Source: an uncultured Pedosphaera sp.
GTDB taxonomy: Bacteria > Verrucomicrobiota > Verrucomicrobiia > Limisphaerales > AAA164-E04
Length of the DNA stretch: 64,000 nucleotides
Direction: 5' to 3'
Assembly: GCA_965214825.1 (NCBI GenBank)
Contig: OZ243981.1
Span: 1,234,567-1,298,566 of the forward strand
Positions within the stretch are counted from its first letter, which is position 1. Every line of letters starts with the position of its first letter. Position numbers and translations under genes: made by a program. The notes under the pieces were generated by a model. The model saw nothing but the letters and a program-made list of their open reading frames with translations, did no database searches and had not been told where the DNA came from. This document shows, one piece after another, positions 14,986-62,416 of this stretch.

Positions 14986-15065
14986 TAAAACCAACGGGAA
15001 TTTGAATTGCGCCTAGCAAACAACCGCAGTTTAATCCCCGCATGGCATCCCGCAAAACCGGGAAC

Positions 15066-15141
15066 GGGCGATTAGCGCAGCGGTCAGCGCAGCTGTCTTA
15101 CACACAGCAGGTCGAGGGTTCGAATCCCTCATCGCCCACCA
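15066..15141 (+). tRNA. tRNA-Val (anticodon UAC), CCA encoded
   Basis: Hand-folded cloverleaf: acceptor GGGCGAT/ATCGCCC, D stem GCGC/GCGC, anticodon stem GCTGT/ACAGC with loop CTTACAC, T arm GAGGG-TTCGAAT-CCCTC, then A-CCA. Confidence 0.9.
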
Positions 15142-15390
15142 CCCCAAAACACGCCCTCCGCTGAATCACACCGGACCAAAACGTGCAGAAACGCCGCGCA
15201 CATCCTTGACAGCCACCAAGTTGAAAGCATGGCGATAACGTTTGGCCGCCCGGAGAAACCATGACAAAGGGGCATCTGCAATCACCACTCCGGAAAAATA
15301 CGGATCTCATTCGCCCATGTAACCGTGGAAATACTTGACGCTGGTCGTGCCGAATACATCATAGCTCAACCCAATCTTTGAAAACGAGAC

Positions 15391-15918
15391 ATGAAAAATA
15401 CATCTGAATATAAACAAGAACTCACAACCTATCTCGTAGGTGAACTTGAGCGCCATTCTGCATCTTACTTTGGCATCGTTACGTTTAGACGATACGATTC
15501 CTTTCGGCGAGTCTCAAAAGTGTTCGATTTTCTCAACCGCTACGGACCAAGCGGCGCGATTTGTCTTGCGGTCGCGAAACAAGGAAGGGTTGGGAGCTCA
15601 TTGCCGGGAAAAACCGAACAGAAAAACCCTCGCCAAGCCGTCGCAAGACAAGGAAAGTTTGGTGGTCGAGTTCATTGTCAGTTCGTCATGGGGGTTACAC
15701 CTGATCCTGGTCTCGCAACTATTCATGCTCTTCAGGATCGACTTACCTCCAAATTTGGCATTTCGGAAATCGAACGAATTCTTTCGAATGAGTCTGTCTC
15801 AAAGCACGTGCTCAAGGGGTCGATAGCAGATACATATGCTATCTTCGAGATCGGAAGATCCTCTGGGAATCTTAACATCGAAATGGGTGATGACCGGCAA
15901 CGGTGTCCATCATATTGA
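15391..15918 (+). CDS. Hypothetical protein (island-borne)
   Basis: 175-aa ORF with an ATG start and no motif I can assign confidently. Confidence 0.4.
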   Translation: MKNTSEYKQELTTYLVGELERHSASYFGIVTFRRYDSFRRVSKVFDFLNRYGPSGAICLAVAKQGRVGSSLPGKTEQKNPRQAVARQGKFGGRVHCQFVMGVTPDPGLATIHALQDRLTSKFGISEIERILSNESVSKHVLKGSIADTYAIFEIGRSSGNLNIEMGDDRQRCPSY

Positions 15919-15980
15919 GTCAAATTAACCTCAAAACCCCACCCCTCTCAAAACCATCAAAGCCCTTAAGTGCTTATTGC
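15914..15980 (+). repeat. Solo arm of the MITE-like repeat family
   Basis: attgagtcaaattaacctcaaaaccccacccctctcaaaaccatcaaagcccttaagtgcttattgc is nearly identical to 17063-17130 and matches the left arm (reverse complement) of the 23905-24067 element. Confidence 0.7.
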
Positions 15981-16040
15981 TCTTTTCGCTGTGCTGTTAC
16001 CGCCCGACTCGAACACCACAACTTGCTTATCACTATACAT

Positions 16041-16355
16041 ATGTACTCTGATCTTCTAAATTTTAATTTCCATTGGATTGATGACATCCCGTTGATCTAT
16101 TATTTGCTTTCCTTCCTTATCTTAGGAATTGTTTTAACTGGTTACCCCTTCGTTGTTTCCTGGCTTGGGCGAGGTGTCGTTTGGCTTGGGCGAGCGATTC
16201 TTTGGCTTGCTCAAGCGATCGTTGTCTCTATCATTGAGGGGGTTCTATTTCTGTTTTTTCTTGTTTGTTTTTTATACCTTGCTTATGGGCTTTTTCGAGG
16301 GAGCGCTTTTTTGTTGGATGCTAGGGAGAATGGCAAATGGCCTTTCGGTAATTAG
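16041..16355 (+). CDS. Small hydrophobic protein with a 3 x 21-bp internal repeat (WLGRGVV/WLGRAIL/WLAQAIV)
   Basis: 104 codons from ATG 16041, strongly hydrophobic. The upstream part of the listed ORF lies in the repeat arm and was discarded. Confidence 0.4.
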   Translation: MYSDLLNFNFHWIDDIPLIYYLLSFLILGIVLTGYPFVVSWLGRGVVWLGRAILWLAQAIVVSIIEGVLFLFFLVCFLYLAYGLFRGSAFLLDARENGKWPFGN

Positions 16356-16660
16356 TTTGTGCTTTGCGCTGTGCTGCCTGCGCCTGGTTCGATCACCACA
16401 GCTTTCCAGTCAGTCAATTCCCGCAAACTCCTTTCGATACGGCAGCGCACATGAGACCATGCCAAACCACAACCCAGTGCGGGCAGCGCGATCGACCGGA
16501 CATTGCGTGACTGTATTTCCTTTACCAAAGCGGCGAGACCGGTTTCGATGTCTTCCATCCGGCTTTTGTCGCGCCAATGGCGTTTGGTTGGGAAGTTGAT
16601 AATGTATCGCGGGTTAGACAATTGTTTTGTTTCGAAGACGAACCTCTTGCCCGGCTGCAC
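16352..16660 (-). pseudogene. Macro-domain (ADP-ribose binding/hydrolase, DarG/TARG1-like) gene fragment
   Basis: 'YIINFPTKRHWRDKSRMEDIETGL...RSIALPALGCGL' matches the middle of macro domains. The N-terminal ~45 residues are missing and the 'GCGLGGL' region is shortened. Confidence 0.5.
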
Positions 16661-17067
16661 ATCGTTGAGTCGACATTCGAGGCGGATGGCAGCGGGGACG
16701 GGCGGTTATGGTTTCACAATCCAAAGACAGACAGGTTGGAAGACATGATAATCGAAGTCAAAGGCGGCAAGAATGTGAAAGTTGAAACGGTTCGCGCCCT
16801 GCGCGGCGCACGCCCTAAACGTGGAGCCGAGATGGCCCGGCTTATCCTGCTAGGAACAATCGGCGACCGCCAACGCCAATACTTTGAATCAGAAATCTCG
16901 GACGCCTTCACAAAGTTCTCGGAATGCAATATCCCCGCTGCCAAATCCTCACATTGAAAGAAATCTTGAAAGGCAAACGTTTCCAAACACCTTCCGTCGT
17001 TGGGCGCGGACTAGTGGACACTGTTCTCCCTGGCATTTCCAGCGGCATCAGCCATCCTCACCATTGA
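16577..17067 (+). pseudogene. Remnant of an Mrr-like restriction-endonuclease domain (as found at the C-termini of some DNA methyltransferases), frameshifted
   Basis: 'DMIIEVKGGKNVKVETVRALRG...AEMARLILL' continues in another frame as 'QILTLKEILKGKRFQTPSV'. No upstream catalytic or MTase part is present. Confidence 0.45.
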
Positions 17068-17130
17068 GTCCAATTAACCTCAAAACCCCACCCCTCCCAA
17101 AACCATCAAAGCCCATAAATACTTATTGCG
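17063..17130 (+). repeat. Solo arm of the MITE-like repeat family
   Basis: attgagtccaattaacctcaaaaccccacccctcccaaaaccatcaaagcccataaatacttattgcg, with TTGAC exactly 10 nt downstream (17141-17145). Confidence 0.7.
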
Positions 17131-17209
17131 AATTTTCCCCTTGACTGATTTCAAACGCCGCCGCAATTGAAGCTGGCTTTATCCTAGAAACTGACTATAA
17201 ATTAGAGAT

Positions 17210-18034
17210 ATGGCAACGGCACTCAATACAGAACAGCCCAAAAGTATCTTCCCCGAAGGGGAAGAAGAAACCATTCGCAAATTCTGATGTGCAAAACCGT
17301 TTCCGCATCTCTGTATCGACAATTTTCTTCCAGAAAAGCAATTCGCCGCTTTGGTCAAAAGCGATCACTTCGCCGAGGAAAAAGTCGAACACAGCTTCAA
17401 AACTCCCATTGAACAAAACAAGACTACCCATTCGTCCGAAGCAGCTTCTGATGAATGGAAATCGCTGATTGGCTTAATGACTAGTCCGTCCTTTTGGCAA
17501 GACTTGGCGACTCTGACCTCTATACAAGAGATTACCCCGCTTAACCGCCTATAAAGAAGAAAGCAACCAATACCACTTTTATCACCAAATGGAGGATGGC
17601 GGATTTTGGGAAACCACGTGGATCATTCAATCGCTCCGGATGGAAGACGTGCTAAATTTCTAAACACCTTCTTTTACAGTGCGGCAACTTGGAATTCATC
17701 ATAGGGAGGACATACTATGCTGTTCGACAAATGGGAGCTTAAAGAGAAAGCTCGTGCGGAATGCGTGCCCAATCGGCTTCTTATATTTTTGCATACCTCG
17801 CAATCGTTTCACGGGGTCTCTCGTCTGGCAGGGAATACGTGCGGTCGTTCGACAGTCTATATGGATTATTACGCGGAGCCCGGCGATCTTCATTTGTTGA
17901 ATAAGCAAAGCAGGCGCTGCAACTCCGGGTTTGAATGCAAGTTCTGGCGACACGGCACTTCGTTTGTACCTTCAACTTTGAAACTGAAGTATTGGCGTTA
18001 TTATTTATTATGGCTGCTGCGGAGAAAATATTGA
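17210..18034 (+). pseudogene. 2OG-Fe(II) oxygenase (prolyl-hydroxylase-like) with three in-frame stop codons and no frameshift
   Basis: A single frame reads 'KPFPHLCIDNFLPE', 'GNHVDHS' (HxD), 'NRLLIF..SFHGVS' (distal His) and 'GRSTVYMDYY'. It is interrupted by TGA 17285, TAA 17552 and TAG 17702. Confidence 0.65.
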
Positions 18035-18495
18035 TAGCCAATGCTTCTCCGAAGAGGGCAAGCTGCATGTTCATTGAAGTGGCAAGGCTTTCTCATTTTG
18101 CTGCATATGACGGAGCGATTGAAACAGAAATTGCCTTTGCCTGGGCCGAGGTCTTATCTGTGGCAACGTTCGATTGCTCAAGGTTGTAGCGTGTTCAATA
18201 TTGAAACTTGGAACCGGTGCTTTCCCAAATATCCTGTCAAACACTTGCCGTCACCGGCGAGTTCTGGGGAAGAAATGTCCTCTTGATTTATTTTGAGTTC
18301 CGTTGCCTTTCACTTTGCCGGGGCTGCATTCACACGAAACCAATTTTCAATTGCCGGGGCATTTGCCTGCTTGTGAGGTGAACCGCGTTTCCATCCCGGC
18401 TGCCTGGGGCGCCGGCGTCTGAGTCCGGCAAGGGCCGGGACGGCGCCGAGGCTGAGGGTTGGAAATAGGCTTTTCATCGGTCGAAAAGATGCGGC

Positions 18496-27940: not shown

Positions 27941-29482
27941 TCAACGTTTGTCTTCGAAGCACTGGATGACTTCCGGGTCGCGGCCCGGCAATTTGCAAAA
28001 GGCCAAGCCGGGGCTCAGCTTGCTGTCCGAAAATTCTTTCGGCATGAGTTTTCGCCCGAAGATGCCTTTGAGCGGTGTCAGTCCCTTTTCGGACTGATTG
28101 CAGGCGAAGCTGATGACGGCGCCGATTTGTGTTATGTATTCGTAATTGCCGCTGGCGAAGTCCCCCGGATTTTGCGACAACAGCATTAACACGCAGCCGC
28201 GCTGGCGGGTTTGTGTAATCATTTCCACCAGCGACTCGCTGCGGTTCTTGATTACCCGATTAGCCTCGTCGATGACTAGCAGATGCCGAAGCTCCCGATG
28301 CCCTTCTTGCAGCGGCGCGTCCTGCCGGCTTTTCCAATAAGCCGCTTCTGCATCCAGCAGCAACTCCATGATGAGGTTTTGATAACTCTGCGGAATGGCC
28401 GGCGAGAGAGAAAGCACCCAGGATTGCGAGAAGAATTCCTCCGGCGGCAGCGACGGTTCAAAAGGGCGAAAACGGGTCAGTTCGTGAAGGACGCTCGAAA
28501 TGATGTCGCTCTCTTGTTCCATGGCGGCATCGTAGGCCTCTGCGATGCGCGCCAAACTCCGCTCTTTCGCTGCCCGCGCTACCTCTTCCACACAGCTCAA
28601 CAACCGCTCCCGCTGAATCGGTTTTGCCGCTGATGCCGGACGACACAGGGAATCCCGCAGACGCATACAGGCGGCTTGCAAAGCTATGTCGCCGCTATCC
28701 GCTTTGGGGAGGAAATCCAACGGAATCGGCTCATTCCCCACTTTCAGAGTCTTCGCCGTAGCGACATCAGCGAATGCGTTGTCATACTGGCAGCCCTTGG
28801 CGAAATCCGGTTTAGGGTCGATATAGATAAAAGGAAGGCGCGCGGCTCGCAAAATCTGCTTTATCAAATCCACGCCCAAGCGCGTTTTGCCCGTGCCGGT
28901 CTTGCCCATCAAAACAAGATGTGGCGAACCCGCCCCGTTGAGGACGAAATCCACCGGTTGGCCGCCCGGATGCTTTCGACTGACTGGCCCAATCCGCAAA
29001 CGAACGGCGCCGGGAACATCCCCCCCGGCAACAATGCCGGCACCCGTTGCCGCTGCGAGGCCGTCCTCCGGCAAGCGGTTGGCCAAACTCTGCGCCAACT
29101 TCACCACATCCCCCTCCGCTTTCTCGAACTCATCAGCAAGCAACTCACTCCCCCGAGCCCAATGCGCTTCCACTGCCCGGCGAAAATTCTCTATGCGAAC
29201 CTTCTCCCCAAAGCTGCCTTCCATCAAAAAAAGCGAAATCCAAAGATCAATGTCGTTGCCGAAAAGATCGCGTCCGCGAATCGTTCTCTTGGCATTGCGC
29301 TGTCCATCGGCAAGAGGCTTGGGCGATTCCCGTTCCATCAAAGAACGCCCTAACATCAGGCGAATCGGCTCATACCGCTTTTGCCCGCCCATCTCGGTGG
29401 AAAAGCGCCTCTCCAACACTACTGCCTCCTCAACCGGAGAAAAAAGAGCGCTGGCGACCACGTCTCGAAAGGAAAGTTTCAT
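27941..29482 (-). CDS. DndE-like N-terminal domain fused to a HerA/FtsK/VirB4-type P-loop ATPase (DndEi-like)
   Basis: The N-terminus 'YEPIRLMLGRSLMERESPKPL...IRGRDLFGNDIDLWISLF' resembles DndE as I recall it. Walker A is 'LMGKTGTGKTRL' and Walker B 'LLVIDEANRV', followed by 'LLSQNPGDF'. The start overlaps the dndD stop by 4 nt. Confidence 0.65.
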   Translation of the reverse strand: MKLSFRDVVASALFSPVEEAVVLERRFSTEMGGQKRYEPIRLMLGRSLMERESPKPLADGQRNAKRTIRGRDLFGNDIDLWISLFLMEGSFGEKVRIENFRRAVEAHWARGSELLADEFEKAEGDVVKLAQSLANRLPEDGLAAATGAGIVAGGDVPGAVRLRIGPVSRKHPGGQPVDFVLNGAGSPHLVLMGKTGTGKTRLGVDLIKQILRAARLPFIYIDPKPDFAKGCQYDNAFADVATAKTLKVGNEPIPLDFLPKADSGDIALQAACMRLRDSLCRPASAAKPIQRERLLSCVEEVARAAKERSLARIAEAYDAAMEQESDIISSVLHELTRFRPFEPSLPPEEFFSQSWVLSLSPAIPQSYQNLIMELLLDAEAAYWKSRQDAPLQEGHRELRHLLVIDEANRVIKNRSESLVEMITQTRQRGCVLMLLSQNPGDFASGNYEYITQIGAVISFACNQSEKGLTPLKGIFGRKLMPKEFSDSKLSPGLAFCKLPGRDPEVIQCFEDKR

Positions 29483-31578
29483 CGGTTAAAATCGAAAAAT
29501 TTATCGTTATGAATTTGGGACTTACCGGTTTTCTTATCGAATTCGATCAGCATCTTTTGATTCACCCTGTCTTCAATCGCCTCCAAGAAGGGTCCCCGAA
29601 CTTCTTCATCATGCGTCAGGATAATGATTTGGTCCGTATGCTTGAACTCCGCCAAACTCCTCAACGCCCGGCGGCGATACTTGGCATCGGCATTGCCGAC
29701 GGGAGTGTCAATCACCAAAGGAATGCGGCGGCGTGTAATCTCGGCCAATGCCAAACAAAACGCAATGCTGAAGCTCCGCCGCTCAAAACCCGAACCACTT
29801 TCAAGATGAAGCACCTCCATCTCCCCGTCCTCCTTCTCCCACTTTAAAATCGGCGACTTACCGACGGAAAGCTCGACATCAAAATCCTTAAACCTTTCAT
29901 CGGCAATCTCTTTGAAATGTTCATTTACAACTGCTCTCAATCGTTCCGCACAAATAGTTGTGAGATCCTGAGTGAAAGTGCTCAAAACCCGTCTCGCTCG
30001 TTCTGCGATTGCCAACCGCTTCAAAGACGGCTCGATATCTTTAAGTTTTTCGAGGATTTCGCCGTGCCTTCTGTTATATCCGTCGACTTCAGATTTTTTT
30101 GAGTCAATTTGACTGTTTAACCCGCCGAGACGAATCCCGTCATTGTGGATATTTTCATTCAGTTCCTCCAACTTGGCCACCAGTGAGTTAAGCTCATCCG
30201 GCCTGTTTTTCTCGATTCGCAATAGATTGTTCGCGTTGTACCATTCGTCTGTCGCTTTACGGTAATCTCGGGCACGTTGGCGCAGAATGCCTGCTTGTTC
30301 CGCTGCCGCCTTTTCGATGCCGTTTCGGATGCGTTCACGGTCTTCACCCTTTACATGACCGAGAATATAGTGTTCTGCCATTTGAGGTTTAGGCCGATTA
30401 TAGATTGCCTCAAACGCGCTGATAATGCGTTGCTTGAGTTGCTCGCGAACATTCGAAGCCATGTTGCAAAGTAAAGTATCCTCTGTTTGCGGTTCAGGCA
30501 GTACTCGAGAAATTACCGCTTCCTTGTGGCTTATCATTGTTTCCTTAAAACGTTCCCATTCTTCCAGCAAGTGTTCATCATTCAACTGTTTAAGGATGGT
30601 ATCCTTAAATCGACCGATTGCCAAAGCAAGGCCGGCATGACTCAAACTGTCGCGCAGTGCATTGCGAGCTTCCGTTTCTTTCTTGCCTGCATTTTTTATC
30701 TCATAAGTCAGTTGTGCGATATTTCTGCCCTGACCGCCGAGCAAGCTGATTTTCCTTTGGATTTCGTCCCGTTTGTTTTCCTTGGATATAGTTGCTTTTT
30801 CAAGTTCCTCTCGTTTTTGTTGAAGTTGCCCTTGTTCTTTATTCAGGTGATTGATTTTGGAAGCAAGAATTGCACATTCGTCTTCCATCTTCTTTGCTTT
30901 TTGTTTACTACCCCCGCTTTTTGAGATATTTGAACTGAACCTTTTCAATTCAACGACGGTTTTTTGAGTCAATTCTTCGCCGAACATAACATTGACTGCT
31001 TTCTGCAACCCGCCGCTACTTCCAATCAAGTCAGCCGCCTGTTCTCCATCAAAGAAAAAAGCCGGTGTCAAGTATGATGGAAACAGCATCTGTTGCAGTT
31101 TAAAGTGAGCTTCATCCAAGTCGCGATAATTTAATAATTGACCGCCGGGATGAGCGTCATTGGCCAAGTGGATTTCGATATCTTCGTTACCTTTAAGTTT
31201 ATTATTTTGGTAGAAATGCCAGCGGCGAATCACACGAATCTCGTCACACGAACCTGGTTTGGCATCAGTGAAAACCAGTTCGATTTGCGTTGGTTCGTCG
31301 GTGGGAACGCCTTTTCGTCGGAAAAATTTGGGCATCGCGGCGCGCATTGATTTGAGTGCAACATCTGCGCTACTGCCTGCTTTTCGGAACCCTTCGCAAG
31401 AGGAGAGGCCGTACTTCCCGAACAAGCCGAGATAGAGCGCCATCAGCAGACTGGTCTTGCCATGTCCGTTTCCCGCGCCGATTAACGTGATCGGTTTATT
31501 TAGCCTTGGTTTTTCAAACTGGAACGTTGCTTCGGAATAGGCACGCCAGTGACGTAAGTGAACTTTTGAAAGATACAT
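29479..31578 (-). CDS. dndD: DNA sulfur modification protein DndD (SMC/ABC-like ATPase)
   Basis: 'LIGAGNGHGKTSLLMALYLGLFG' P-loop, a long coiled-coil middle, and the C-terminal 'RIPLVIDTPVGNADAKYRR' and 'IIILTHDEE'. Confidence 0.8.
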   Translation of the reverse strand: MYLSKVHLRHWRAYSEATFQFEKPRLNKPITLIGAGNGHGKTSLLMALYLGLFGKYGLSSCEGFRKAGSSADVALKSMRAAMPKFFRRKGVPTDEPTQIELVFTDAKPGSCDEIRVIRRWHFYQNNKLKGNEDIEIHLANDAHPGGQLLNYRDLDEAHFKLQQMLFPSYLTPAFFFDGEQAADLIGSSGGLQKAVNVMFGEELTQKTVVELKRFSSNISKSGGSKQKAKKMEDECAILASKINHLNKEQGQLQQKREELEKATISKENKRDEIQRKISLLGGQGRNIAQLTYEIKNAGKKETEARNALRDSLSHAGLALAIGRFKDTILKQLNDEHLLEEWERFKETMISHKEAVISRVLPEPQTEDTLLCNMASNVREQLKQRIISAFEAIYNRPKPQMAEHYILGHVKGEDRERIRNGIEKAAAEQAGILRQRARDYRKATDEWYNANNLLRIEKNRPDELNSLVAKLEELNENIHNDGIRLGGLNSQIDSKKSEVDGYNRRHGEILEKLKDIEPSLKRLAIAERARRVLSTFTQDLTTICAERLRAVVNEHFKEIADERFKDFDVELSVGKSPILKWEKEDGEMEVLHLESGSGFERRSFSIAFCLALAEITRRRIPLVIDTPVGNADAKYRRRALRSLAEFKHTDQIIILTHDEEVRGPFLEAIEDRVNQKMLIEFDKKTGKSQIHNDKFFDFNR

Positions 31579-31583
31579 CTTTA

Positions 31584-31814
31584 CTATTCTCCGGTGTTTG
31601 TCTCGCCAGCAGGCGGACGAGGTTCTGAAAGGCGGTCGATGGCAGATTCTATTGCGGCGTTCAAGCCATTTTTACGTTCCATACCAGTGTATTCATGCAC
31701 AAGTTGGCAGAGGTCTTGTATCAGCTCGGCGGAAATTTCTTCCTTTTCGCACAACTCGATCAACTTTTGTTTTGCCCTGCGATCGGTAAAACAGGGCAAT
31801 TCGTTCGTCTTCAT
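31584..31814 (-). CDS. Small acidic protein between dndC and dndD (possible DNA-modification-system-associated small protein)
   Basis: 76 codons. The start lies 1 nt after the dndC stop and the stop lies 5 nt before the dndD start. No motif was recognised. Confidence 0.55.
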   Translation of the reverse strand: MKTNELPCFTDRRAKQKLIELCEKEEISAELIQDLCQLVHEYTGMERKNGLNAAIESAIDRLSEPRPPAGETNTGE

Positions 31815-31815
31815 A

Positions 31816-32919
31816 TTACCCCAAAACTTTCCGTTTCAAGTTGGTTGTTTCATCTGTTCTCCAGATGTGTTCGATAAACCGTATTTCTTCTTTGGAAATC
31901 AATTTCATATCGACAGTTTCTTGAAGTTCAAGGAGTTCCTGAAGCAACATCTTTCTGGCGTCGATTGTGAGCGGTCCTAATCCTGGTTGCCCGTTGCGGC
32001 GAATAAAGCAGCGATAATCTGGCTCGTCGCTGACTTCGCGCAGCCTCTCTCTGAACGCGCCAAGCAAGGCGAGCTTATCGTCTTTATCATCCTTCTTTGC
32101 CATATTGTCTGCTGAATTATTTTTTTTGACAACCGTGCATGTCCAGCAACCGAACCGCGCGTTGTTGGTGCCGCACCCTGCTGCGTCTGCTTCACTAACC
32201 ACAAAAGGGCATTCTGCATCTTGTCCACCAGCGTCCATGTAAAGGTTCAGCATCTCTTTGTGACGCCCACCCCAGGCTGGTTTCTGTTCCACGAGAGTTT
32301 CAAACACCTCCCAAGTTTCCCAATCTTTTATCGGTGTAAAGACATGGCACCCTTTGACGTCTGTATGTGGTGTAAAGTTCGGATGCTGTTTTGTGGCGAG
32401 AGTTTCATGTTTGGTTATCCTTCGGCAGCGGGATTCGGATTCTGCTTTCCGAACACCAAGTAACATCACCGCATTGCCGTGTTCTTTTACCATTTCTTTT
32501 AGCAAGGCAACGGTCGGTTTAATTTTCATATTGTTTGTGCACCATCGAAAGGCGTAGTTCGGTGCTGGGTAGCCTTTGCCTAGTAAACCACACCAAAAGG
32601 TTTTACCATAATCTGGGTTTGTCTGTATAACTTGAATGGGAAGCCCTAAAATGCTAAGGTTTCGTTTCAAAACTTCTAACTGGTTATCTACGTAGGATTG
32701 AAAGATGGGCGACTCGACCAGGGTATCGTTATTAGCGACGATAATTTTACGTTGTCGTTCATCCGGCGCAATGTCCTTAAGCGTGTCCACAACGAGATGG
32801 AGCAGCAGTGTGCTGTCTTTCCCGCCACTGAACCCGATCACCCACGGCCAATCGTTTTCAGCCAGGTATTCCTGCCTAATCAATTGGCGGGCGGCTTTGT
32901 TTTTATCGGGTAATTCCAT
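31816..32919 (-). CDS. dndC: DNA phosphorothioation sulfurtransferase DndC (PAPS-reductase/PP-loop family)
   Basis: PP-loop 'IGFSGGKDSTLLLHLV' and Cys cluster 'ECPF...GCGTNNARFGCWTCTVV'. The start was set at ATG 32919, because the ORF extension to 33216 is basic low-complexity sequence. Confidence 0.8.
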   Translation of the reverse strand: MELPDKNKAARQLIRQEYLAENDWPWVIGFSGGKDSTLLLHLVVDTLKDIAPDERQRKIIVANNDTLVESPIFQSYVDNQLEVLKRNLSILGLPIQVIQTNPDYGKTFWCGLLGKGYPAPNYAFRWCTNNMKIKPTVALLKEMVKEHGNAVMLLGVRKAESESRCRRITKHETLATKQHPNFTPHTDVKGCHVFTPIKDWETWEVFETLVEQKPAWGGRHKEMLNLYMDAGGQDAECPFVVSEADAAGCGTNNARFGCWTCTVVKKNNSADNMAKKDDKDDKLALLGAFRERLREVSDEPDYRCFIRRNGQPGLGPLTIDARKMLLQELLELQETVDMKLISKEEIRFIEHIWRTDETTNLKRKVLG

Positions 32920-33284
32920 GTTAAATCTGTTGGTGTGAATTTCGGTGAATTTGACTAGTGTTTGCAAAGATGTTGAAATTTTTTTATTAGCAACCCTCCG
33001 TCCCTGATGTCCACACCGACTTGTTGCCTTCCCCTTGAGTTGGAATGTCCAACGATGATTTTGTCGGTTGCGCCGAGTTTTTCCCGAACGAAGCATCATT
33101 TTTGAGCGCGGTAGCAATGAGGACGGCGGTGTCTTGGTTGACAGTGCCGTGTTCAAGTGGAGGCGCGGTCGAGATGGATGAGACTGGCAAGTCCTCCATT
33201 CCTTGAGGAATTTCAAGGCGCTGCGGGAAAGAGTTGGTGCCGGGCCTCTCCCTGGAGAGCGCGACTCGCAAGCTACACTATAAA

Positions 33285-33409
33285 CTGCCGGACTGCCGGA
33301 CTGCCGGACTGCCGGACTGCCGGACTGCCGGACTGCCGGACTGCCGGACTGCCGGACTGCCGGACTGCCGGACTGCCGGACTGCCGGACTGCCGGACTGC
33401 CGGACTGCC
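33285..33409. repeat. Perfect octanucleotide tandem repeat (CTGCCGGA) x15 plus a partial unit
   Basis: Counted directly: 15 identical 8-bp units over 33285-33404, then ctgcc. Confidence 0.95.
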
Positions 33410-33501
33410 CTCTCTTCAGTATGGCAGAATGCTCGGAGATTGTCGCCATCAGATTTCGGGGAAGCCTGCCCCGTAGATGCCGTCTTGTCAAGGGCGAAAT
33501 T

Positions 33502-33639
33502 CGCGATAAGGAGTTATAGGCTTAACGGGAGTGCCTGCACCTCCACCGCTCTACGAGCCCTACCGCCCCCACCGCTCTACGAGTGTCTGCCCCACCTTTA
33601 TGCTGGACAAGGTGAAAAGCCCGTAACTCCTTATTGCGG
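33502..33639. repeat. Full-length MITE-like element upstream of aroE
   Basis: Termini cgcgataaggagttataggctt / aagcccgtaactccttattgcgg form an inverted repeat. The interior holds two ccaccgctctacgag units and gtgtctgccccacc. Confidence 0.7.
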
Positions 33640-33721
33640 CGAAATTGTGGAGCTGCGGTTGGTTTGGGCTTGTATTTTTCATGGTTTGGGTTTTCGATTC
33701 GGGTTTGAGGAAGGTTTGGTT

Positions 33722-55003: not shown

Positions 55004-57973
55004 TCAGAGAGATTCAAAGATGCGTTCAGGCTGGTCAATATAAAAACGCCGATATTTCTCCGGCACGGCATTGCTCTTTTTATTGAACATCCAAAGCGCG
55101 ACGCGGACCGTGAATTCGCGGTATCCAAATTGGGCCAGCTCACCGTTCCCTTTTTCAAACAGGTTTTGATAACCGTCTATTTTGTGGTAGGCAGAGGTGT
55201 GCTGTGTTCCTTTGGGATCAACAAAAACAATACGATATTCATTCCCTCGACACATCCAGAAAACAAAATCGGGCAAGAAACGGCGGCATTCGTTTTTCTC
55301 GGGGTCGGAGTAGGGAATATGAATGTTGTCCCAAGATTCGTCTATCTTGCTAAACATCCAGGCATCCCATGGCACAGTATTTTTCCCAAGCCATTCTTCC
55401 AGCGCATTAAGAAAGTTGATCTCACTTGCAACCTTGATAATGTGCTGAATGTAATTTGCTTTCTCGTCTCCCAGTATCACAGGGAAATAATAGTGTTTGA
55501 GCACTTTCCTTATTTTCAGATCCATAAAAGATTTTTCGGCTCTTTCCGCCAACTTCGCATATCTCTTGCCAAACACTTCCTGCGTTATTTTTTCCTCTGC
55601 AAGTTGCCATGCTAACTCAACCATTTCCCCATTCGATGCTTTGCCTGCTTTTACCTGATCAATCTTAGTTTGCAGTTCACAGACATATTCCGAACGAACG
55701 CGAATCTCGCGGAAATGAACAATGTCTTCGTCTGCTATTTCACGAACGCCGTCTGAGACTTTTTCAATTTTCATCGTGTGGGCCAGAAGACGGTTTTGCA
55801 GAAACGGCAGCAGCGCATAGTCTTTCCCCTGTTTGATTTGTATTCCATTCTTAATCTTTTGTATTCCATTCTCAATCTTAAGTAACCCGCGCAGCGCGTT
55901 AATCTGAAACATGGCAAGCTCATCCCGAACGATATACACTGAATCAGACGTTCTTTTAAACCACGATTGCAACCTTTCCAAGGTTTCCTCGCTCATCCAG
56001 AATGGAGACGGCAAACTCGTCGGCTCTTCCCTGTATTCGGGCACTAACAGCGGCATATCTTTATTATTGATTTTAGATAACGGCGCCTTTTCAAAACCCT
56101 CCAGCCTTTCAAAGACAGCGCCCTTCTCCGCTTCCAACCCCTTCAGCACGGATTTGACGGCACTGCGATTGGTTGCAAACAGAAACAACGTTTCCGGCGG
56201 CTGCACCTTGTCGTGATAGTCTTGGATGCGCTGCTTCTCTTTGCTGTCGGCGAGGTAGGCAAAACGGCGGCGCTGATTCGGCAACGTTTCAATCCGCACG
56301 CCGCGCCCGACGGACTGCACTATAAACTTTTTGGCATCACTGCCGCCGATGTTGATGAAGTTGATCACATTGGGACGGTTGGAGTCCCAGCTTTCAAAAA
56401 ACGACCGGGAACCCATAAGGACCGTTATAGAGCTTTGTTCCAATTCGTCAAAAAACGACTTTTCCTGCAACGCGGTTGTTTCCTCAAAGCCGGCAAGAAG
56501 ATTGTTGCGCCACTTGGAAGTGTCGCCTATGCGTATCAAGGCAAACGGAGAATCTGCATTTTTCAGTTGAAACGCCAATTCCTTGTTGTCTCCACTGCGA
56601 ATAAGCTGTAACGCTCCTTTTTTACGGCTGAGAAAAACCGCCTCTCGTAAATCGGCCGTTGTCATTTTCTTAATGGGAGTTTCATCGGTTTCGATAATTC
56701 CCCCGCTGTCTTCTCTAAAAAGAAGCCTCGCATTTCTCCAATCATCAATCAGTTCAGTTTTTGAGTCTCTAAAAAGCGCGGTATCAATTGCTCCCGTGGC
56801 AACTTCACGCAAGGTTTGGAAAAACGCCCACAGATCGTTTCTTTCATTTTCAACGTCAGTATTTACAGAATTGACCAAGGTCAGCATGAGTGGCAAGTGA
56901 TACAAATCTCCGATTTGCGTCCCTTCCCGTAGCTCTTTTACTCGTAACGAAACATAGCCAAATGTGATTAACGATTTCATGACAATTTTTCTTCTTTCTT
57001 CATGGCTCATTTCTTTCCCCCTGTGGCGGAAGGCATCGTATTCCTGCTCGTTCAGAAAAATGTTTTTGCCATGCCCATTGATAACAAACTCCTCCAGATT
57101 GTATTTTTTGACCGTCGTTATAATGTCTTCTTTATCCGTAAAAGTAGCGGAAAAGTTAAACAAAAACCCCTCCCGCGCCATCACCGCGTAATACGCCTGC
57201 CGCTTGGAGTCCTCTTTACCGCCCTTATGCGCCTCGTCAAGCAACACGTACCATTTTCCGCAGTTTTCATAAGTGCGGTAGTTGGTCAGCGTGTCTTTCT
57301 GTACATCGGAAATGTTATCACTGCGGTGGTAGTAAACCGTCGCCATATCGCCAATTCTCGCCTGACGGCTGCGGTGCATTTCACGCAGCGGAACCAAATC
57401 TATATAAAGCCCCGTCTGATTGAATTCCTCCACGGTACGGCGGATTTGACCTAACAGATGCTCGCTGGGCGCAAGGATGAGGATGTTATGCGGCGGAATT
57501 TCCCGATGGCGTATCAAGTGGTGCAAGTACTCTATCAGCTTGACCATCACCAGTGTCTTGCCGCTGCCGGTCGCCATCCAGAAGCACATGCGGTTGATCA
57601 GGTTATGATAGGAAATGGTATCATCAAAAGGCGTTATATAGTCCGAAAGGATACGAAATACCGGATTCTCATCGCCATTTCTTCGGCTATTCCGGCTCTC
57701 ATATTGATTTACATTGGCAATTCCGTGGGTGTCATACAGGTCGAAGAAATACCGTTTACGTTCGTTGTTTGTCGCCTGTGGCTCACCGATGCTCCAGTCG
57801 TGTTCCTTGCCATAATACAGAAACAGCGCCCGCGCTGCTTTTTGCAAAGCGTCGGTTTGGTAATCGTACAGCGTCTTTGTGGTGGAAAAATTACCTATAT
57901 CCGGGACACGCCAAGTTTCGGGCAGATCGCCGTAGTTCAGGGATTGAGCAATGGATTCAAGTGATAGATGCAT
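55004..57973 (-). CDS. res: Type III restriction Res-like SF2 helicase with a C-terminal PD-(D/E)xK nuclease-like domain
   Basis: Motif I 'WMATGSGKTLVM', motif II 'LLDEAHKGG', motif III 'FSATF' and motif VI 'QSVGRGVRIE'. The C-terminus has 'FLPDFVFW...YRIVFVDPKGT'. Confidence 0.8.
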   Translation of the reverse strand: MHLSLESIAQSLNYGDLPETWRVPDIGNFSTTKTLYDYQTDALQKAARALFLYYGKEHDWSIGEPQATNNERKRYFFDLYDTHGIANVNQYESRNSRRNGDENPVFRILSDYITPFDDTISYHNLINRMCFWMATGSGKTLVMVKLIEYLHHLIRHREIPPHNILILAPSEHLLGQIRRTVEEFNQTGLYIDLVPLREMHRSRQARIGDMATVYYHRSDNISDVQKDTLTNYRTYENCGKWYVLLDEAHKGGKEDSKRQAYYAVMAREGFLFNFSATFTDKEDIITTVKKYNLEEFVINGHGKNIFLNEQEYDAFRHRGKEMSHEERRKIVMKSLITFGYVSLRVKELREGTQIGDLYHLPLMLTLVNSVNTDVENERNDLWAFFQTLREVATGAIDTALFRDSKTELIDDWRNARLLFREDSGGIIETDETPIKKMTTADLREAVFLSRKKGALQLIRSGDNKELAFQLKNADSPFALIRIGDTSKWRNNLLAGFEETTALQEKSFFDELEQSSITVLMGSRSFFESWDSNRPNVINFINIGGSDAKKFIVQSVGRGVRIETLPNQRRRFAYLADSKEKQRIQDYHDKVQPPETLFLFATNRSAVKSVLKGLEAEKGAVFERLEGFEKAPLSKINNKDMPLLVPEYREEPTSLPSPFWMSEETLERLQSWFKRTSDSVYIVRDELAMFQINALRGLLKIENGIQKIKNGIQIKQGKDYALLPFLQNRLLAHTMKIEKVSDGVREIADEDIVHFREIRVRSEYVCELQTKIDQVKAGKASNGEMVELAWQLAEEKITQEVFGKRYAKLAERAEKSFMDLKIRKVLKHYYFPVILGDEKANYIQHIIKVASEINFLNALEEWLGKNTVPWDAWMFSKIDESWDNIHIPYSDPEKNECRRFLPDFVFWMCRGNEYRIVFVDPKGTQHTSAYHKIDGYQNLFEKGNGELAQFGYREFTVRVALWMFNKKSNAVPEKYRRFYIDQPERIFESL

Positions 57974-57988
57974 GGATTAGCTATAGAC

Positions 57989-58489
57989 TCAATGGTTATT
58001 TCTTATGGTAATAGCTTCCTCTACAGCGCCGGCTAAATTCTTCTTAATCCAATCGTACCGCTCCTGACTGTTGTGGCCAGCAGGATCATAACATTTGACG
58101 ACCGACAAGAGTTTCTCACCGAAATTTCCACAAGAAATATCGAAAGGGTTTTTACCCTTAGAAGAAATACTTTCATACTGGTCTTTTAGTCCGTGTATGT
58201 ATATTCCGACCACGCCCATACCTTCATTTCGTGACTTTCTTATTTCATAATTGATCCATTTTCTATTTGCTGTATTGCTGCCAACGAGGACGACGGTGCA
58301 TGACCTGTACTTCATTTGGTTATCTATCCATTTTTTAATCGCAGTATCACCACCTTTTTTAACTGCTTCCCATTCGTTATCAGTTGCTGGCCTATTACCT
58401 TCAACAACACCCATGTTGCGTACTTGCGAGACTCGCCAACTATCTTGATCGTAGTGAAAACTGTAAAAGACTCGTCTTTTTGTCGCCAT
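57989..58489 (-). CDS. ThsB-like TIR-domain protein (DUF1863 type)
   Basis: 'RRVFYSFHYDQDSWRVSQVRN', 'TVVLVGSNTANRKWINYEIRKS' and 'GIYIHGLKD...SKGKNPFD' closely follow the Thoeris ThsB pattern as I recall it. Confidence 0.75.
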   Translation of the reverse strand: MATKRRVFYSFHYDQDSWRVSQVRNMGVVEGNRPATDNEWEAVKKGGDTAIKKWIDNQMKYRSCTVVLVGSNTANRKWINYEIRKSRNEGMGVVGIYIHGLKDQYESISSKGKNPFDISCGNFGEKLLSVVKCYDPAGHNSQERYDWIKKNLAGAVEEAITIRNNH

Positions 58490-58543
58490 ATTCGTTTTTC
58501 TATCTCCTCATTCGTTCTGCTCTTACTTTACTTAATTGTAAAT

Positions 58544-58954
58544 TTAAGAATAACAAAAGATCCATCCCAACACAAATAAAGCCTGAATGCCATAAAATAA
58601 GAGCAATGTTACGGAAAACATGGAAGCAAACCAGTTACACTTTGGTTGGCTTTTGTGTTTCATCATATCCATTGCAAAATCCGTGGCTCCTTGCTCTCTA
58701 ATCTCATCGTAACCTTTACGAAACAATCGCTCTTGCCAAAGAAAATAAACGTCCAATACCCAAAACCCAACTACTGGAATGAGAAAAGACAATACGATAT
58801 ATTCGTTTCCGATCCCGCTTCTTGCAGAAAAGATGATTCCAGCAGCCAATATGGTTATGCTCCAACCTTTGATCAAGAAAGAGTCATGCCCCAGACGGTT
58901 AATAACCCCCTGAATCATTTCCAAGTGCTTCACGATTTGTTCTTTATTATGCAT
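58544..58954 (-). CDS. Small 3-TM membrane protein of unknown function
   Basis: 136 aa with an amphipathic N-terminus 'IVKHLEMIQGVINRLGHDSFLIKGW'. Hydrophobic segments are 'SITILAAGIIFSA', 'YIVLSFLIPVVGFWVLDVYFLW' and 'VTLLLFYGIQALFVLGWIF', with a ~40-aa charged loop. Confidence 0.6.
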   Translation of the reverse strand: MHNKEQIVKHLEMIQGVINRLGHDSFLIKGWSITILAAGIIFSARSGIGNEYIVLSFLIPVVGFWVLDVYFLWQERLFRKGYDEIREQGATDFAMDMMKHKSQPKCNWFASMFSVTLLLFYGIQALFVLGWIFCYS

Positions 58955-58966
58955 TGCAACACCTCT

Positions 58967-59632
58967 TTAAGCTTTCACCGTCTTTGTGATTTTGTAATCA
59001 TCTATCTTCTCTCTTATATTCTCTGCTATTTGAATATACTTTTCTTTGTCATTTATAAAATCCTGCCATGTAACCGAGTAAATATAGCTAGGATCACCTG
59101 TATAAACAGGATTCTTTGGGTGATTTCTACAATTGCTAAAGGTAGGTTCCTTTATGTTAAACATATTGTCTCGCAATATCTGAAAGAGAGTGTCGGTTTT
59201 TAGTGTTTTACAATGACAGTATGGACAGGAATCTTCCACAAGAAAGTATTGGTAAGAGGAGTTTCTGTCGGGCAGAACGACTGCTAACACTGCATTTGTT
59301 TTGCTAGTACGCCCATCCCGTGTGATTTCCTTGAAGGAATAAGAAACCTCCCATGGAATCCACTGATTGCCTTCGTTAATACTCGTGTCTTTCATATTGG
59401 GCGAAATTAAGACAATAGTGATACTGCTGTCATATATTTTGTCCTTCAGATGAGTTTTTATCGTCTCGTCTTCAAACTCTTCTAAATCTTCATCACCTTC
59501 TCCTTTATAAATCTCATCTCCCTCAAATAAATCAATTAGCTTATCAACATAATCCCTGGCTGTGCTTTCTCCATTCAATGCTTCCACATTTCTATCACTG
59601 TGCTTATAAGAAACAAATATTTTTCTAGCCAT
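58967..59632 (-). CDS. Second, divergent ThsB-like TIR-domain protein
   Basis: '[11 protein letters not shown]', '[12 protein letters not shown]', '[11 protein letters not shown]' and '[10 protein letters not shown]' (DUF1863/TIR-like pattern), with an extra Cys-containing C-terminal region 'CPYCHC'. Confidence 0.65.
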
Positions 59633-59647
59633 TTTAGTATTCTGCTT

Positions 59648-62416
59648 TTACTCCCCCCACCACAGATACGATTTGATAAGTGAGATGAAGTGCCGTTTTT
59701 CTTCTTCGGTCATGGTTGCCGGGTCGGTTTTCTCGGTGGTGCCGTCGGCGAAGGTTACGCTGTCGGCGGTGCGGCGACGGATCGGTTTGCCGAGCGCATT
59801 GGACAGCGTCTCGGCAATGTCGATGTCCTGGTAGTCCCGGTAGAGGTCGTGGAGATTGATTTTCAGTTTGCCGTTTTTCAGCGGTTTGACCGCGCCCGCG
59901 AGTTTGTCGTCGCCGAAGAAAACATACTGCTCAAAGGGCGATTTTGTGCTGTCCAGCTCCAGTGAAGTGACTCGCCGTCCGCTATCATAGCGGGCTTCTT
60001 TGAGCGTCTCTTCGTACTGCTCCAGTTTGTAGTATTTGAGGCAATGGCTGACGCCTTCACGGGAGACAGGTTTGCCGTTTTTCCAGTCTTTGGAATAGAC
60101 CACTTTTTTGATGCGCGGTAGAAGAACGGTGTCGAAGTAGTCTCCCATTTCGATCATCAAGTATTTGCGATTGCCGCCGTCTTCGCGATTGAGATTGATA
60201 ACGGCGTGAGCAGTGGTGCCGGAGCCGGCGAAGTAGTCTACTGCTACTGCGTTTCTTTTGTTGCAGCCGGATGTTGTTAAACAATCTTCGACTAATGCTA
60301 CGGATTTCGGAAAATTGAATAAACTCTCTCCAAAGAGATCTTTTAGAACTTTTGCCCCGTGGTTGGATGATGCGTATTTGTTATCATCCCACCAAGTCTT
60401 GGGCATCGCACTCTCGTCCATCCGAATGCGGAAATCTATACTTATACTCCCATTCTTACCTCGGCGAATGCGATACTCGTCTGGTTCAGATTGAACGCGT
60501 TCCCATCCGCGATGCCAGTTTTTCTCGATTTCACCTCTGATGGGCCAAAGAACGACTTCATCTGAATTGGGTTTTTCCTGAACCCGATACTCGCGGTTAT
60601 CTTCACGCCACTCCAGTTCAGGAATTCGGATGGTGTCGTCCTCTTTGACATAAATTGGATAAAACATCTTCGGTGCATCTTCTCTTTTGTCATTTGAACC
60701 ATGCCGAATCAAATTGTTCCAGGCATATCTTCCCTGACTGTCCGCAAATGGATAACGCGCACGTTCCTTGTCGGTCTTTGGTAGGCTGGACGGTACAGCG
60801 TCCTTATTACCAAAGAACAAGGCGTATTCGTGAGATGGCGAAAACTGTCCCGTGGATTTTCTTCCAGCAGGATTCGTCCGCACAGGAACCACGCCCAATT
60901 TTCGGTCAAAAACTCTTTGCAATAGGTCAAATAAACGCCAAGACTCTTCATCATCAATAGCACAACAAATAATTCCTTCGCTGCCCAGAAACGCTTTTGA
61001 TATTGTTAGTCGATTTTCTACCAATGAAAGCCATGACGAATCTTTATAATCGTTTCTATACAAAATGGCTGAAGAATCGGTGTTATACGGTGGATCGATA
61101 TAAATACATTTAACCTTCCCCCTGTACCTCTCCCGCAAAGTATTCAATGCCTGCCAGTTCTCGCTGTGCACCAGTTCGCCGTCCAGCGCTTCGTCCAGAT
61201 TCCCTAACGCAGCGAGAATCTCCAATTTCATATCTTTGAAATATCCGGTGTCCAGCGGCAGAAACTTATAGTCGCCGTTTGCGCCGCCGTTGGTATCGGC
61301 CAGGTTTTGCTGCCCGGCGCCGAGCGCATCCATTGAAAATTGGTCATCCACCATGCCGAGCTCGCGCCACTCCTTGATTTGCGTCCGCGCGCCTTTGTGT
61401 TGGCGCACCTTTTGTAGCGTCTCGGCGTTCAATTTATCCAGCGTAACGACATAGTTGACATTGCGGACGAATTTCGGCTTTTCCCAGGCGCGGCGCAGCT
61501 CATCCTCGAACTGGGCTATGAAGTGGATGATGTCGTAGGCGGTTTCCTTGAGCGCCTGCAACTGTTTGATGCGCTTTTGTTCGAAGACGGTCTCTTCCTG
61601 AAACAGGTATTGGTACATCCACAGATCAAACTGCTCGCGCAGAAAGCCTTTGGCGTCCTTATTGATAAAGTAATCAACTTCCGTCTGACGGCGGAACACG
61701 CCGAGCGCTTTTTGGAGTTGGTCATCGGTCAGTGAGATGCCGCCCCGGCGGGCCTCTTTGAGGATGGCGGCGGTCTTCGTTTTCGTACCGCCGCGCGCGT
61801 AGGCGACTTTCAGATGGATTACCCGCCCTTCGGCCGTTTTTTTAACTTCGTCAAAGTCAAACACGAATTCACGCCGTTCGTTGTTCTGCTTGTGCTCCAC
61901 CTCGGAAGCGTCAAAATAGAAACGCCTTGTTTTTTGCGGTTTGCCTTCCTCGTTCAGCTCGACCGGCATGGAGCGCACTAACGCATCCGATTTGACATAA
62001 TAGAGCATCTGCGTTTTCCACGACAACGCGACGTCCTGACCGTCTGCATAGACCTGCTGATAGGTTTTGGAGAAGGCCGGCAGGTGGCGGAAGTAGATGG
62101 AGCCGCTTTCGCAGAAGTAACGCCTGAAGAAGGTGTACAGCTTGTCGAACAGCTCCTCACGGAAGGCGGTTTGCGGTTTGGCGCGTTGATCAATCGCGGC
62201 CATCAGTTGCGGCTTGATGGATTGGAAGTAGTGCTGTTTGATCCACATCAGGTTGACGAAGCCGGAGTGTTTACCGTCCACCTCGGCACCGGTGAACAGC
62301 GCTTCCAGCTCGTCCAAAAAACGCTTTTCCTTTCTGCCGCCGTTCATCTTTCCGCCTTGCGATGTGCGGCGGTTGTGTTTTGGCCTGATAGCTTGCTTGT
62401 GCGACACTGTTTGCAT
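59648..62416 (-). CDS. mod: Type III Mod-like DNA methyltransferase (beta-class N6A/N4C)
   Basis: Motif IV 'CIYIDPPYNT' precedes motif I 'VAVDYFAGSGTTAHAV'. At 922 aa it has a large N-terminal region. An alternative ATG lies at 62347. Confidence 0.8.
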   Translation of the reverse strand: MQTVSHKQAIRPKHNRRTSQGGKMNGGRKEKRFLDELEALFTGAEVDGKHSGFVNLMWIKQHYFQSIKPQLMAAIDQRAKPQTAFREELFDKLYTFFRRYFCESGSIYFRHLPAFSKTYQQVYADGQDVALSWKTQMLYYVKSDALVRSMPVELNEEGKPQKTRRFYFDASEVEHKQNNERREFVFDFDEVKKTAEGRVIHLKVAYARGGTKTKTAAILKEARRGGISLTDDQLQKALGVFRRQTEVDYFINKDAKGFLREQFDLWMYQYLFQEETVFEQKRIKQLQALKETAYDIIHFIAQFEDELRRAWEKPKFVRNVNYVVTLDKLNAETLQKVRQHKGARTQIKEWRELGMVDDQFSMDALGAGQQNLADTNGGANGDYKFLPLDTGYFKDMKLEILAALGNLDEALDGELVHSENWQALNTLRERYRGKVKCIYIDPPYNTDSSAILYRNDYKDSSWLSLVENRLTISKAFLGSEGIICCAIDDEESWRLFDLLQRVFDRKLGVVPVRTNPAGRKSTGQFSPSHEYALFFGNKDAVPSSLPKTDKERARYPFADSQGRYAWNNLIRHGSNDKREDAPKMFYPIYVKEDDTIRIPELEWREDNREYRVQEKPNSDEVVLWPIRGEIEKNWHRGWERVQSEPDEYRIRRGKNGSISIDFRIRMDESAMPKTWWDDNKYASSNHGAKVLKDLFGESLFNFPKSVALVEDCLTTSGCNKRNAVAVDYFAGSGTTAHAVINLNREDGGNRKYLMIEMGDYFDTVLLPRIKKVVYSKDWKNGKPVSREGVSHCLKYYKLEQYEETLKEARYDSGRRVTSLELDSTKSPFEQYVFFGDDKLAGAVKPLKNGKLKINLHDLYRDYQDIDIAETLSNALGKPIRRRTADSVTFADGTTEKTDPATMTEEEKRHFISLIKSYLWWGE

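Follow-up and report, generated by a model that had tools for sequence, protein, structure and literature searches.

A 64,000-nucleotide stretch of DNA from an uncultured Pedosphaera sp. (Verrucomicrobiota, Limisphaerales; contig OZ243981.1, positions 1,234,567 to 1,298,566 of the forward strand), referred to here as the window, carries a Dnd-type operon whose last gene encodes DndE fused to a HerA/FtsK-class ATPase. We consider it likely, with a probability of roughly 0.7, that this operon is a functional phosphorothioate (PT) writer, belongs to the 'DndE-HerA/FtsK fusion' subtype of Dnd and has been vertically retained beside aroE in the Limisphaerales. Its four open reading frames (ORFs) are arranged head-to-tail on the minus strand, span positions 27941-32919 and, as judged by reading of the ORFs and their junctions, are translationally coupled. 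The genes and the two domains of the fusion are the following.

31816..32919, minus strand: short dndC, 367 aa counted from the ATG at 32919
31584..31814, minus strand: Sp-DndD small ORF, 76 aa, Pfam PF20306
29479..31578, minus strand: gene of a DndD-related coiled-coil ABC ATPase, 699 aa
27941..29482, minus strand: dndE::HerA/FtsK fusion gene, 513 aa
29078..29482, minus strand: DndE domain of the fusion, residues 1 to ~135, predicted double ribbon-helix-helix DNA-binding module
27941..29005, minus strand: HerA/FtsK-class ATPase domain of the fusion, residues ~160-513, DndH C-domain type

The junction between dndC and the small ORF reads TAA-T-ATG (1-nt gap), that between the small ORF and dndD reads TAG-TAAAG-ATG (5-nt gap), and dndD and the fusion gene overlap by 4 nt (ATGA). 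A preliminary description of this DNA had proposed the order dndC - small ORF - dndD - dndE::ATPase, exactly these junctions, and a DndE-like N-terminus joined to a P-loop ATPase. The four ORFs were verified with their families and coordinates, the junctions were read as described, and the two-domain reading of the last protein was borne out by the comparisons given below. The small ORF, given there without a family, turned out to belong to a known one.

Domains of the four encoded proteins

The 513-aa protein is encoded by a single ORF holding two domains. In its AlphaFold2 (AF2) model (predicted local distance difference test score, pLDDT, 88), an N-terminal domain formed by residues 1-135 is followed by a disordered linker (residues 140-155) and by the P-loop domain. 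Because a profile search of the N-terminal domain against PDB sequences gave a weak match to DndE (E 0.28-0.42), together with a spurious match to a designed repeat, its identity was settled by fold comparison. Modelled alone (AF2, pLDDT 91.6), the domain consists of a strand-helix-helix unit present twice and a C-terminal helix, and the top 17 PDB matches found for this model by Foldseek were all DndE structures (7x4e, 4lrv, 5wtu) with target-normalised template modelling scores (TM-scores) of 0.69-0.79. In a BLASTP search of a small local database, residues 9-133 showed 30% identity with a standalone DndE of Mesorhizobium (E 1.4e-10), and the Pfam family PF08870 DndE was matched by 22 of 34 members of the fusion family with a best E value of 1.3e-9. 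On the predicted fold, the N-terminal domain of the fusion is DndE, built of two tandem ribbon-helix-helix units and a C-terminal helix.

The C-terminal domain is of the HerA/FtsK class and of the DndH C-domain type. A family profile searched against PDB sequences matched 7es4, the C-domain of DptH/DndH, with an E value of 3.4e-19, followed by HerA with 8.7e-7; Foldseek likewise ranked 7es4 first (E 3.9e-18, target-normalised TM-score 0.80), followed by HerA 4d2i (2e-9) and then by TdpAB, VirB4 and TrwB. The lead of 7es4 over any other HerA/FtsK structure thus amounts to about 9-12 orders of magnitude; the assignment to the branch shared with DndH was judged by this profile and Foldseek ranking. 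Among 34 homologues with 33-68% identity, Walker A (G193-x4-GKT200), Walker B (D405-E406) and S436-Q437, which includes the sensor-1 glutamine, are invariant, and R426 at the arginine-finger position is conserved in at least 90% of the sequences. The kinship with DndH of the DndFGH complex is confined to this domain: residues ~160-513 find in it their closest match by sequence profile and by structure, and the PADLOC DndH matches of the fusion cover only profile positions ~1240-1650, whereas the nuclease, inactive methylase, target-recognition and helicase-like domains of DndH are absent, as are DndF and DndG.

The product of the first gene scored 306 bits with TIGR03183, above the equivalog cut-off of 290.4, and 328 bits with the PADLOC DndC model PDLC02662; Pfam PAPS_reduct was matched as well. 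Canonical DndCs of Pontibrevibacter and Streptomyces share its SGGKDS PP-loop and its cysteines in FRWCT, ECPFV and GCGTNNARFGCWTC. The alignment covers positions 5-365 of the 447 positions of TIGR03183 and stops there. As judged from these sequence features, the 367-aa DndC is a PP-loop ATP pyrophosphatase and iron-sulfur (Fe-S) sulfurtransferase without the canonical C-terminal module. All of the best 120 DndC homologues listed have the short form; most are 365-400 aa long, and the longer homologues inspected differ by N-terminal extensions only. The public dndC annotation (P0038, 426 aa) uses an upstream start, 59 codons before the ATG at 32919, and so takes in window positions 32920-33096. 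As homology to other DndCs sets in at the ATG at 32919, the N-terminal extension annotated for P0038 is probably not translated.

The 76-aa ORF matched Pfam PF20306 with 29.7 bits (gathering cut-off 27.2), a family described by Pfam as 'Sp-DndD, small protein found in certain Dnd DNA modification systems' and named 'DNA modification system-associated small protein' in RefSeq. It also aligned with the C-termini of three DndC profiles, namely positions 397-445 of 447 in TIGR03183, 406-456 of 505 in NF005316 and 406-455 of 481 in the PADLOC DndC model, corresponding to the C-terminal ~50 residues of DndC. A profile built from more than 20 orthologous small ORFs aligned with residues 409-454 of a canonical 487-aa DndC encoded in a dndBCDE cluster. 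Since Pfam, the three DndC profiles and the alignment with canonical DndC agree, the 76-aa helical protein is equivalent to the C-terminal module of canonical DndC, encoded separately. A separate ORF of ~67 aa between dndC and dndD is kept in 27 loci from two phyla, with varied junctions including ATGA overlaps and with the consensus PCFxDxE-TKKxIxxLCxxxxIDxxLLKDLCELVxxxSGSGRRxG; a frameshift artefact as the origin of the split dndC was rejected on account of this conservation. An in-frame Sp-DndD::DndD read-through seen in one metagenome-assembled genome (MAG; locus L036) was not used, as the dndD and fusion matches of this MAG are fragmented, which suggests assembly errors.

The base composition changes within the operon. 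The guanine-cytosine (GC) content is 0.46-0.49 in dndC, Sp-DndD and dndD, with values at third codon positions (GC3) of ~0.49-0.52, and 0.567 in the fusion gene, whose GC3 of 0.65 is near that of host genes (~0.68). The AT-richer island proposed in the preliminary description is therefore real for the first three genes and does not extend to the fourth. The same step was observed in both closest Limisphaerales relatives (L005 and L006) and not in other lineages, and it hints at a mosaic origin or a partial replacement of the cassette. Together with the location of the canonical DndC C-terminus in a separate ORF and with the absence of dndA and dndB from the window, this step could be taken to mean that the operon is the decaying remnant of a dndABCDE cluster and the split dndC the product of a frameshift pseudogene. 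We regard this as extremely improbable and largely refuted by conservation: the split gene is retained across the 27 loci with its own Pfam family, none of the four ORFs is truncated and their catalytic motifs are invariant, and the short form is shared by all of the listed DndC homologues.

The 699-aa protein aligned through residues 3-694 with positions 3-650 of the 650 positions of TIGR03185 (DndD), that is, from end to end. Walker A (G34-S43), Q180, the signature SGFE (596-599), the Walker B residue D624 and H656 are conserved in at least 90% of 24 orthologues. In these 24 sequences, neither a CxC zinc-hook motif nor any conserved cysteine pair was found at the coiled-coil apex. Although the best PADLOC model of this protein is PbeC, a classification within the PbeC/CxC clade was rejected for lack of the CxC motif at the apex. 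Considering the conserved ABC residues as well, the protein is best called a DndD-related ATPase, in agreement with PMC10853773.

Several observations weigh against the operon being a PT writer of the fusion subtype. Profile searches with DndC, DndD and DndE models, as suggested in the preliminary description, placed DndC above its cut-off, but the 699-aa protein reached 162.7 bits with TIGR03185 and stays below the cut-off of 245.85, so that the DndD equivalog level is not attained; its best PADLOC model, PbeC PDLC02736, gave 237 bits and the DndD models 184 bits. Similarly, the fusion protein of the window itself lies below the Pfam DndE threshold, and its assignment rests on its family, which is matched, and on the predicted fold. 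The roles of Sp-DndD and of the motor are derived from homology and gene order only. No cysteine desulfurase or DndA was found in the 64-kb window by tblastn with the desulfurase of related loci (E > 0.3), and the literature searched contains neither PT chemistry for any member of the subtype nor any experimental study of it.

Distribution and relation to known systems

A word-indexed search for relatives of the fusion protein gave 37 clusters, and a full HMMER scan of 1.84 billion representatives gave 164 sequences at E <= 1e-30, most of them ~500-530 aa long and covering both domains. Among 185,579 GTDB species genomes, 42 loci with a fusion relative were found, nearly all in Verrucomicrobiota and Planctomycetota, including the cultured Aquisphaera insulae JC669, whose cassette (L025) has a desulfurase gene beside it. 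The subtype is thus concentrated in the Planctomycetes-Verrucomicrobia-Chlamydiae (PVC) phyla. The order DndC, Sp-DndD, DndD, DndE::HerA is kept in every related locus in which the extent of the contig permits its assessment, with ~26 complete cassettes counted from the 42 GTDB species loci and from metagenome contigs. The fusion gene adjoins a gene encoding an ABC ATPase related to DndD in all related loci, and DndC precedes this trio in all complete PVC-type loci. The nearest relatives, with 68% identity, are encoded in Limisphaerales MAGs with the same aroE/pyrD flank, which indicates that the cassette was inherited in place; it is vertically retained beside aroE in this lineage of the Verrucomicrobiota. 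In some hosts, the entire cassette is far more AT-rich than its surroundings, which is consistent with horizontal spread.

Neighbours of the cassette were identified by clustering the flanking ORFs of related loci. A NifS/DndA-like cysteine desulfurase is adjacent in at least 19 loci, DGQHR/DndB proteins of two families occur in 10 and 9 loci, a PT-associated methyltransferase (TIGR04096) accompanies the cassette in 5, and a conserved 235-aa protein without family match in 7. In one metagenomic relative (L004, 6333-9119), a 928-aa PbeA-like protein combining PLD (HKD) and SNF2-family helicase domains is encoded immediately downstream of the cassette and represents a candidate restriction partner in that lineage. 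A further locus (L049, 8001-14294) encodes a short DndC of the same clade, directly followed by an SBD-HNH protein (a PT-binding nuclease like ScoMcrA), by two proteins without assignment and by a methyltransferase of the D12 class; no DndD or DndE was found in this stretch.

The architecture is not new as an observation, since it is present in the literature, in Pfam and in RefSeq naming. A DndE-HerA/FtsK fusion beside a DndD-related ATPase was reported as HerA/FtsK 'clade-3' (Rakesh, Aravind & Krishnan, NAR 2024, PMC10853773) and is traced in that paper to an ABC-ATPase survey (Krishnan et al., NAR 2020, gkaa726). The operon is one more member of this rare, published and computationally described subtype and not a new kind of system: it shares the N-terminal DndE, the C-terminal HerA/FtsK domain that groups with DndH, the DndD-related neighbour and Sp-DndD, and differs in nothing of kind, the window member coming from Limisphaerales and lacking an adjacent dndA or dndB.

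In canonical systems, a cysteine desulfurase delivers the sulfur that DndC inserts, and DndD and DndE form the DNA-handling core, which is obligate in Dnd systems (PMC10853773). With the DndABCDE systems of Streptomyces lividans, E. coli B7A and Salmonella Cerro 87, the operon shares the DndC chemistry domain, the coiled-coil ABC ATPase, the double ribbon-helix-helix fold of DndE and the gene order C-D-E. It differs in its split DndC, whose C-terminal module has become a 76-aa gene, in a DndD below the equivalog cut-off and in having neither dndA nor dndB in the window. While canonical DndE comprises 124 aa in a Pontibrevibacter plasmid (L056), which provides an example of dndBCDE with a desulfurase, and 142 aa in a Mesorhizobium locus, DndE of the window carries a 350-aa motor ATPase.

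PbeABCD, or CxC-ABC, systems (PbeB, PbeC, PbeD and the HKD-helicase PbeA) show the same order of small protein, ABC ATPase and DndE-family protein, and it is their PbeC model that the ABC ATPase of the window matches best in PADLOC. In contrast to these systems, the window has no CxC zinc hook and no PbeA, and its DndE is fused to a motor. Furthermore, PbeB is said to evolve rapidly and to be disordered for the most part, whereas the small protein of the window is a conserved helical homologue of the DndC C-terminus.

An analogous four-gene logic was found in proteobacterial plasmid cassettes of Burkholderia glumae (psl2395s1p, L053, 6947-11903) and Mesorhizobium amorphae (pM0123d, L054, 5817-14497). 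Their genes are annotated as dndC, 'DNA modification system-associated small protein', dndD and 'DNA translocase FtsK', with products of 375, 70, 689 and 513 aa; the small protein scored 56.5 bits with Sp-DndD, and the last protein has an N-terminal DndE domain. However, the motor fused there consists of FtsK-alpha and FtsK/SpoIIIE (PF01580, E 8e-47), which belong to another HerA/FtsK branch, and it shows no significant similarity to the ATPase of the window beyond the P-loop. As the two motors are from different branches, DndE appears to have been joined to HerA/FtsK-class motors more than once. SspABCD and TdpABC systems also pair a sulfur-inserting enzyme of the PAPS-reductase type with a ring ATPase; DndC of the window weakly matched SspD (E 2.6e-10, versus 3e-98 for the DndC model), and the structural neighbours of the motor include TdpAB. 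Their ATPase families and partners are different, though. In Ssp, SspC, an AAA+ ATPase of the Orc/Cdc6 clade, replaces the ABC ATPase, and SspB is found instead of any cognate of DndE; in Tdp, PT synthesis requires tdpC only.

The Mesorhizobium locus contains a canonical DndC-DndD-DndE set and, separately, an Sp-DndD / ABC / DndE::FtsK trio. Such a trio might be taken as a sign that the DndD-DndE::HerA core scans DNA for a purpose other than PT, either another modification or a nuclease-free exclusion of invading DNA. This would be in line with PbeC being the best PADLOC model of the ABC ATPase and with the report that PT genes can be missing beside DndD/CxC-DndE cores, which can be coupled to cytosine methylases (Rakesh et al.). 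We nevertheless consider this reading very unlikely, as the first gene of the operon encodes a DndC that exceeds the equivalog cut-off and has its PP-loop and cysteine cluster intact, is translationally coupled to the others and stands ahead of the trio throughout the complete PVC-type loci, and as no methylase is encoded in or adjoining the cassette.

Genomic surroundings

Besides the desulfurase, DndB of both types and the other neighbours of related cassettes had no homologue in the 64-kb window (tblastn, all E > 0.3), and PADLOC revealed no Dnd, Pbe or Ssp restriction component among the other large ORFs of the window. DndF, DndG and full-length DndH were not found in it, the DndH profiles matching the C-terminal ATPase region of the fusion only. 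No PLD/HKD-helicase (PbeA) adjoins the operon; the sole matches of the PbeA model in the window are weak ones to the helicase cores of a Type III Res protein and of an unrelated 711-aa helicase. In the closest relatives, L005 and L006, no nuclease is encoded within 10 kb of the cassette.

The preliminary description was therefore right in reporting no dndA, dndB or recognisable restriction gene, and its statement that IscS can stand in for DndA agrees with the literature (PMC10853773; PMC11662687). The term 'minimal' is specific to the lineage, in view of the desulfurase and DGQHR/DndB genes of many relatives. The lack of these genes is not unusual, however: of the taxa with a modification module, 32% have DndA and 51% have DndB, and DndFGH, described as decoupled, is present in about a third of Dnd-bearing taxa (PMC10853773). 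As IscS can replace DndA in addition, the absence of dndA, dndB and dndFGH is ordinary.

The operon is flanked by housekeeping genes on both sides. Downstream and convergent are genes for ClpP, a protein with a glutamate-synthase domain and a carboxylase of the oxaloacetate-decarboxylase alpha type (OadA); upstream and divergent are those for AroE, PyrD, a PolB-type exonuclease, MutS and LptF/G. The start of aroE was placed at ~33722 from an orthologue beginning with MGKVWNFKQ, which delimits the following region.

32920..33721, no strand: divergent dndC/aroE intergenic region, with an octanucleotide repeat at 33284-33409

This region presumably houses the operon promoter; promoter and terminator scans of it gave results no better than shuffled expectation. 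Tandem Repeats Finder detected a perfect tandem repeat of the octanucleotide ACTGCCGG in 15.8 copies (100% matches) at 33284-33409. This array lies upstream of both genes, ~365 nt from dndC and ~310 nt from where aroE probably starts, and none of the related loci has a repeat like it. The array could be a promoter element variable in repeat number.

A low-GC island at 55004-62416 is occupied by a Type III restriction-modification (R-M) system with embedded TIR genes.

59648-62416: Type III Mod, 922 aa, 639 bits with the PADLOC Type III methyltransferase model
58967-59632: ThsB-like TIR, between Mod and Res
58544-58954: PDC-M50A, between Mod and Res
57989-58489: PDC-M50B/ThsB-like TIR, between Mod and Res
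55004-57973: Type III Res, 989 aa

The preliminary description had named this Mod/Res/TIR island as a candidate partner of the Dnd operon. This proposal was rejected, since the island is a complete, self-contained Type III R-M system equipped with a methyltransferase of its own, without anything that connects it to Dnd. Another low-GC stretch at 15000-18300 (GC 0.46-0.49) contains short ORFs only, without Pfam or PADLOC match. At 820-1304, inside the first long ORF (20-1630), a 132-bp (2 x 66) tandem repeat is present in 3.7 copies with 90% identity and probably encodes a protein repeat array.

Proposed mode of action and biological role

As a PT writer of the fusion subtype, the operon could act as follows. 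Persulfide sulfur would come from a cysteine desulfurase (IscS, NifS or SufS) whose gene lies at another place in the genome, in keeping with the relatives that carry such a gene adjacently. Short DndC, by means of a cysteine-ligated Fe-S centre, would insert this sulfur into DNA, a reaction established for canonical DndC and suggested here by the shared sequence features. Sp-DndD would provide the C-terminal module of DndC in trans and probably docks DndC onto the ABC ATPase. The DndD-related ATPase and the double ribbon-helix-helix domain of DndE may together form the core that scans DNA and recognises sites, and the HerA/FtsK ATPase fused to DndE, probably assembled as a ring, would drive the complex along the DNA duplex. 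Possibly the motor responds to PT as well, which would couple scanning to the state of modification. This last step is proposed purely from kinship with DndH, as the closest relative of the fused ATPase is the DndH motor domain and ATP hydrolysis by DndFGH is repressed by PT sites (PMC11662687).

A module of this kind without a linked nuclease may set an orphan epigenetic or protective mark, or a self-mark for an unlinked reader. As no nuclease is encoded nearby, it is most simply regarded as a stand-alone writer. Alternatively, the operon might be the modification half of a genuine defence system, in which an unlinked or unrecognised nuclease senses PT and the DndH-type motor takes part in the discrimination between self and non-self. 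The candidate effectors directly downstream of the cassette in relatives, such as the PLD and SNF2 helicase of L004 and the 235-aa protein of seven loci, speak for such a role, as do the DndH type of the fused ATPase and the argument that 'capture' by HerA/FtsK proteins is a general theme of anti-invader systems (PMC10853773). Against it, neither a nuclease nor a homologue of a PT reader was found in the 64-kb window or within 10 kb of the cassette in L005 and L006, the Type III R-M/TIR island is self-contained, and modification modules are commonly decoupled from restriction (PMC10853773). On balance, a defence system of this type seems rather unlikely.

Dnd systems modify only a fraction of their consensus sites. 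It is conceivable, though quite unlikely in our view, that the fused motor is a PT-responsive translocase like DndH, which would make the cassette a self-regulating writer able to read its own mark in the course of scanning; in a bolder version, the cassette alone would confer nuclease-free protection by engaging invading DNA. If true, a PT-responsive motor could explain why not all consensus sites are modified, and the 'restriction' motor of DndH would have been borrowed from, or lent to, the modification machinery.

For the PT writer of the fusion subtype, the present analysis adds the recognition of the small protein as the detached C-terminal module of DndC, the structural confirmation that the motor is of the DndH C-domain type, the concentration of the subtype in the PVC phyla and the proteobacterial analogue with a motor of the FtsK-alpha/FtsK type. 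By joining the recognition subunit of a PT writer and a DndH-type motor in one protein, with a module of DndC split off, the subtype offers a compact, naturally dissected version of the Dnd machine. With it one could probe the role of the DndC C-terminus, the way in which DndD and DndE find their sites and the sensing of PT by a DndH-type ATPase, for which cultured carriers are at hand in Aquisphaera insulae JC669 and, for the FtsK-type variant, in Burkholderia glumae.

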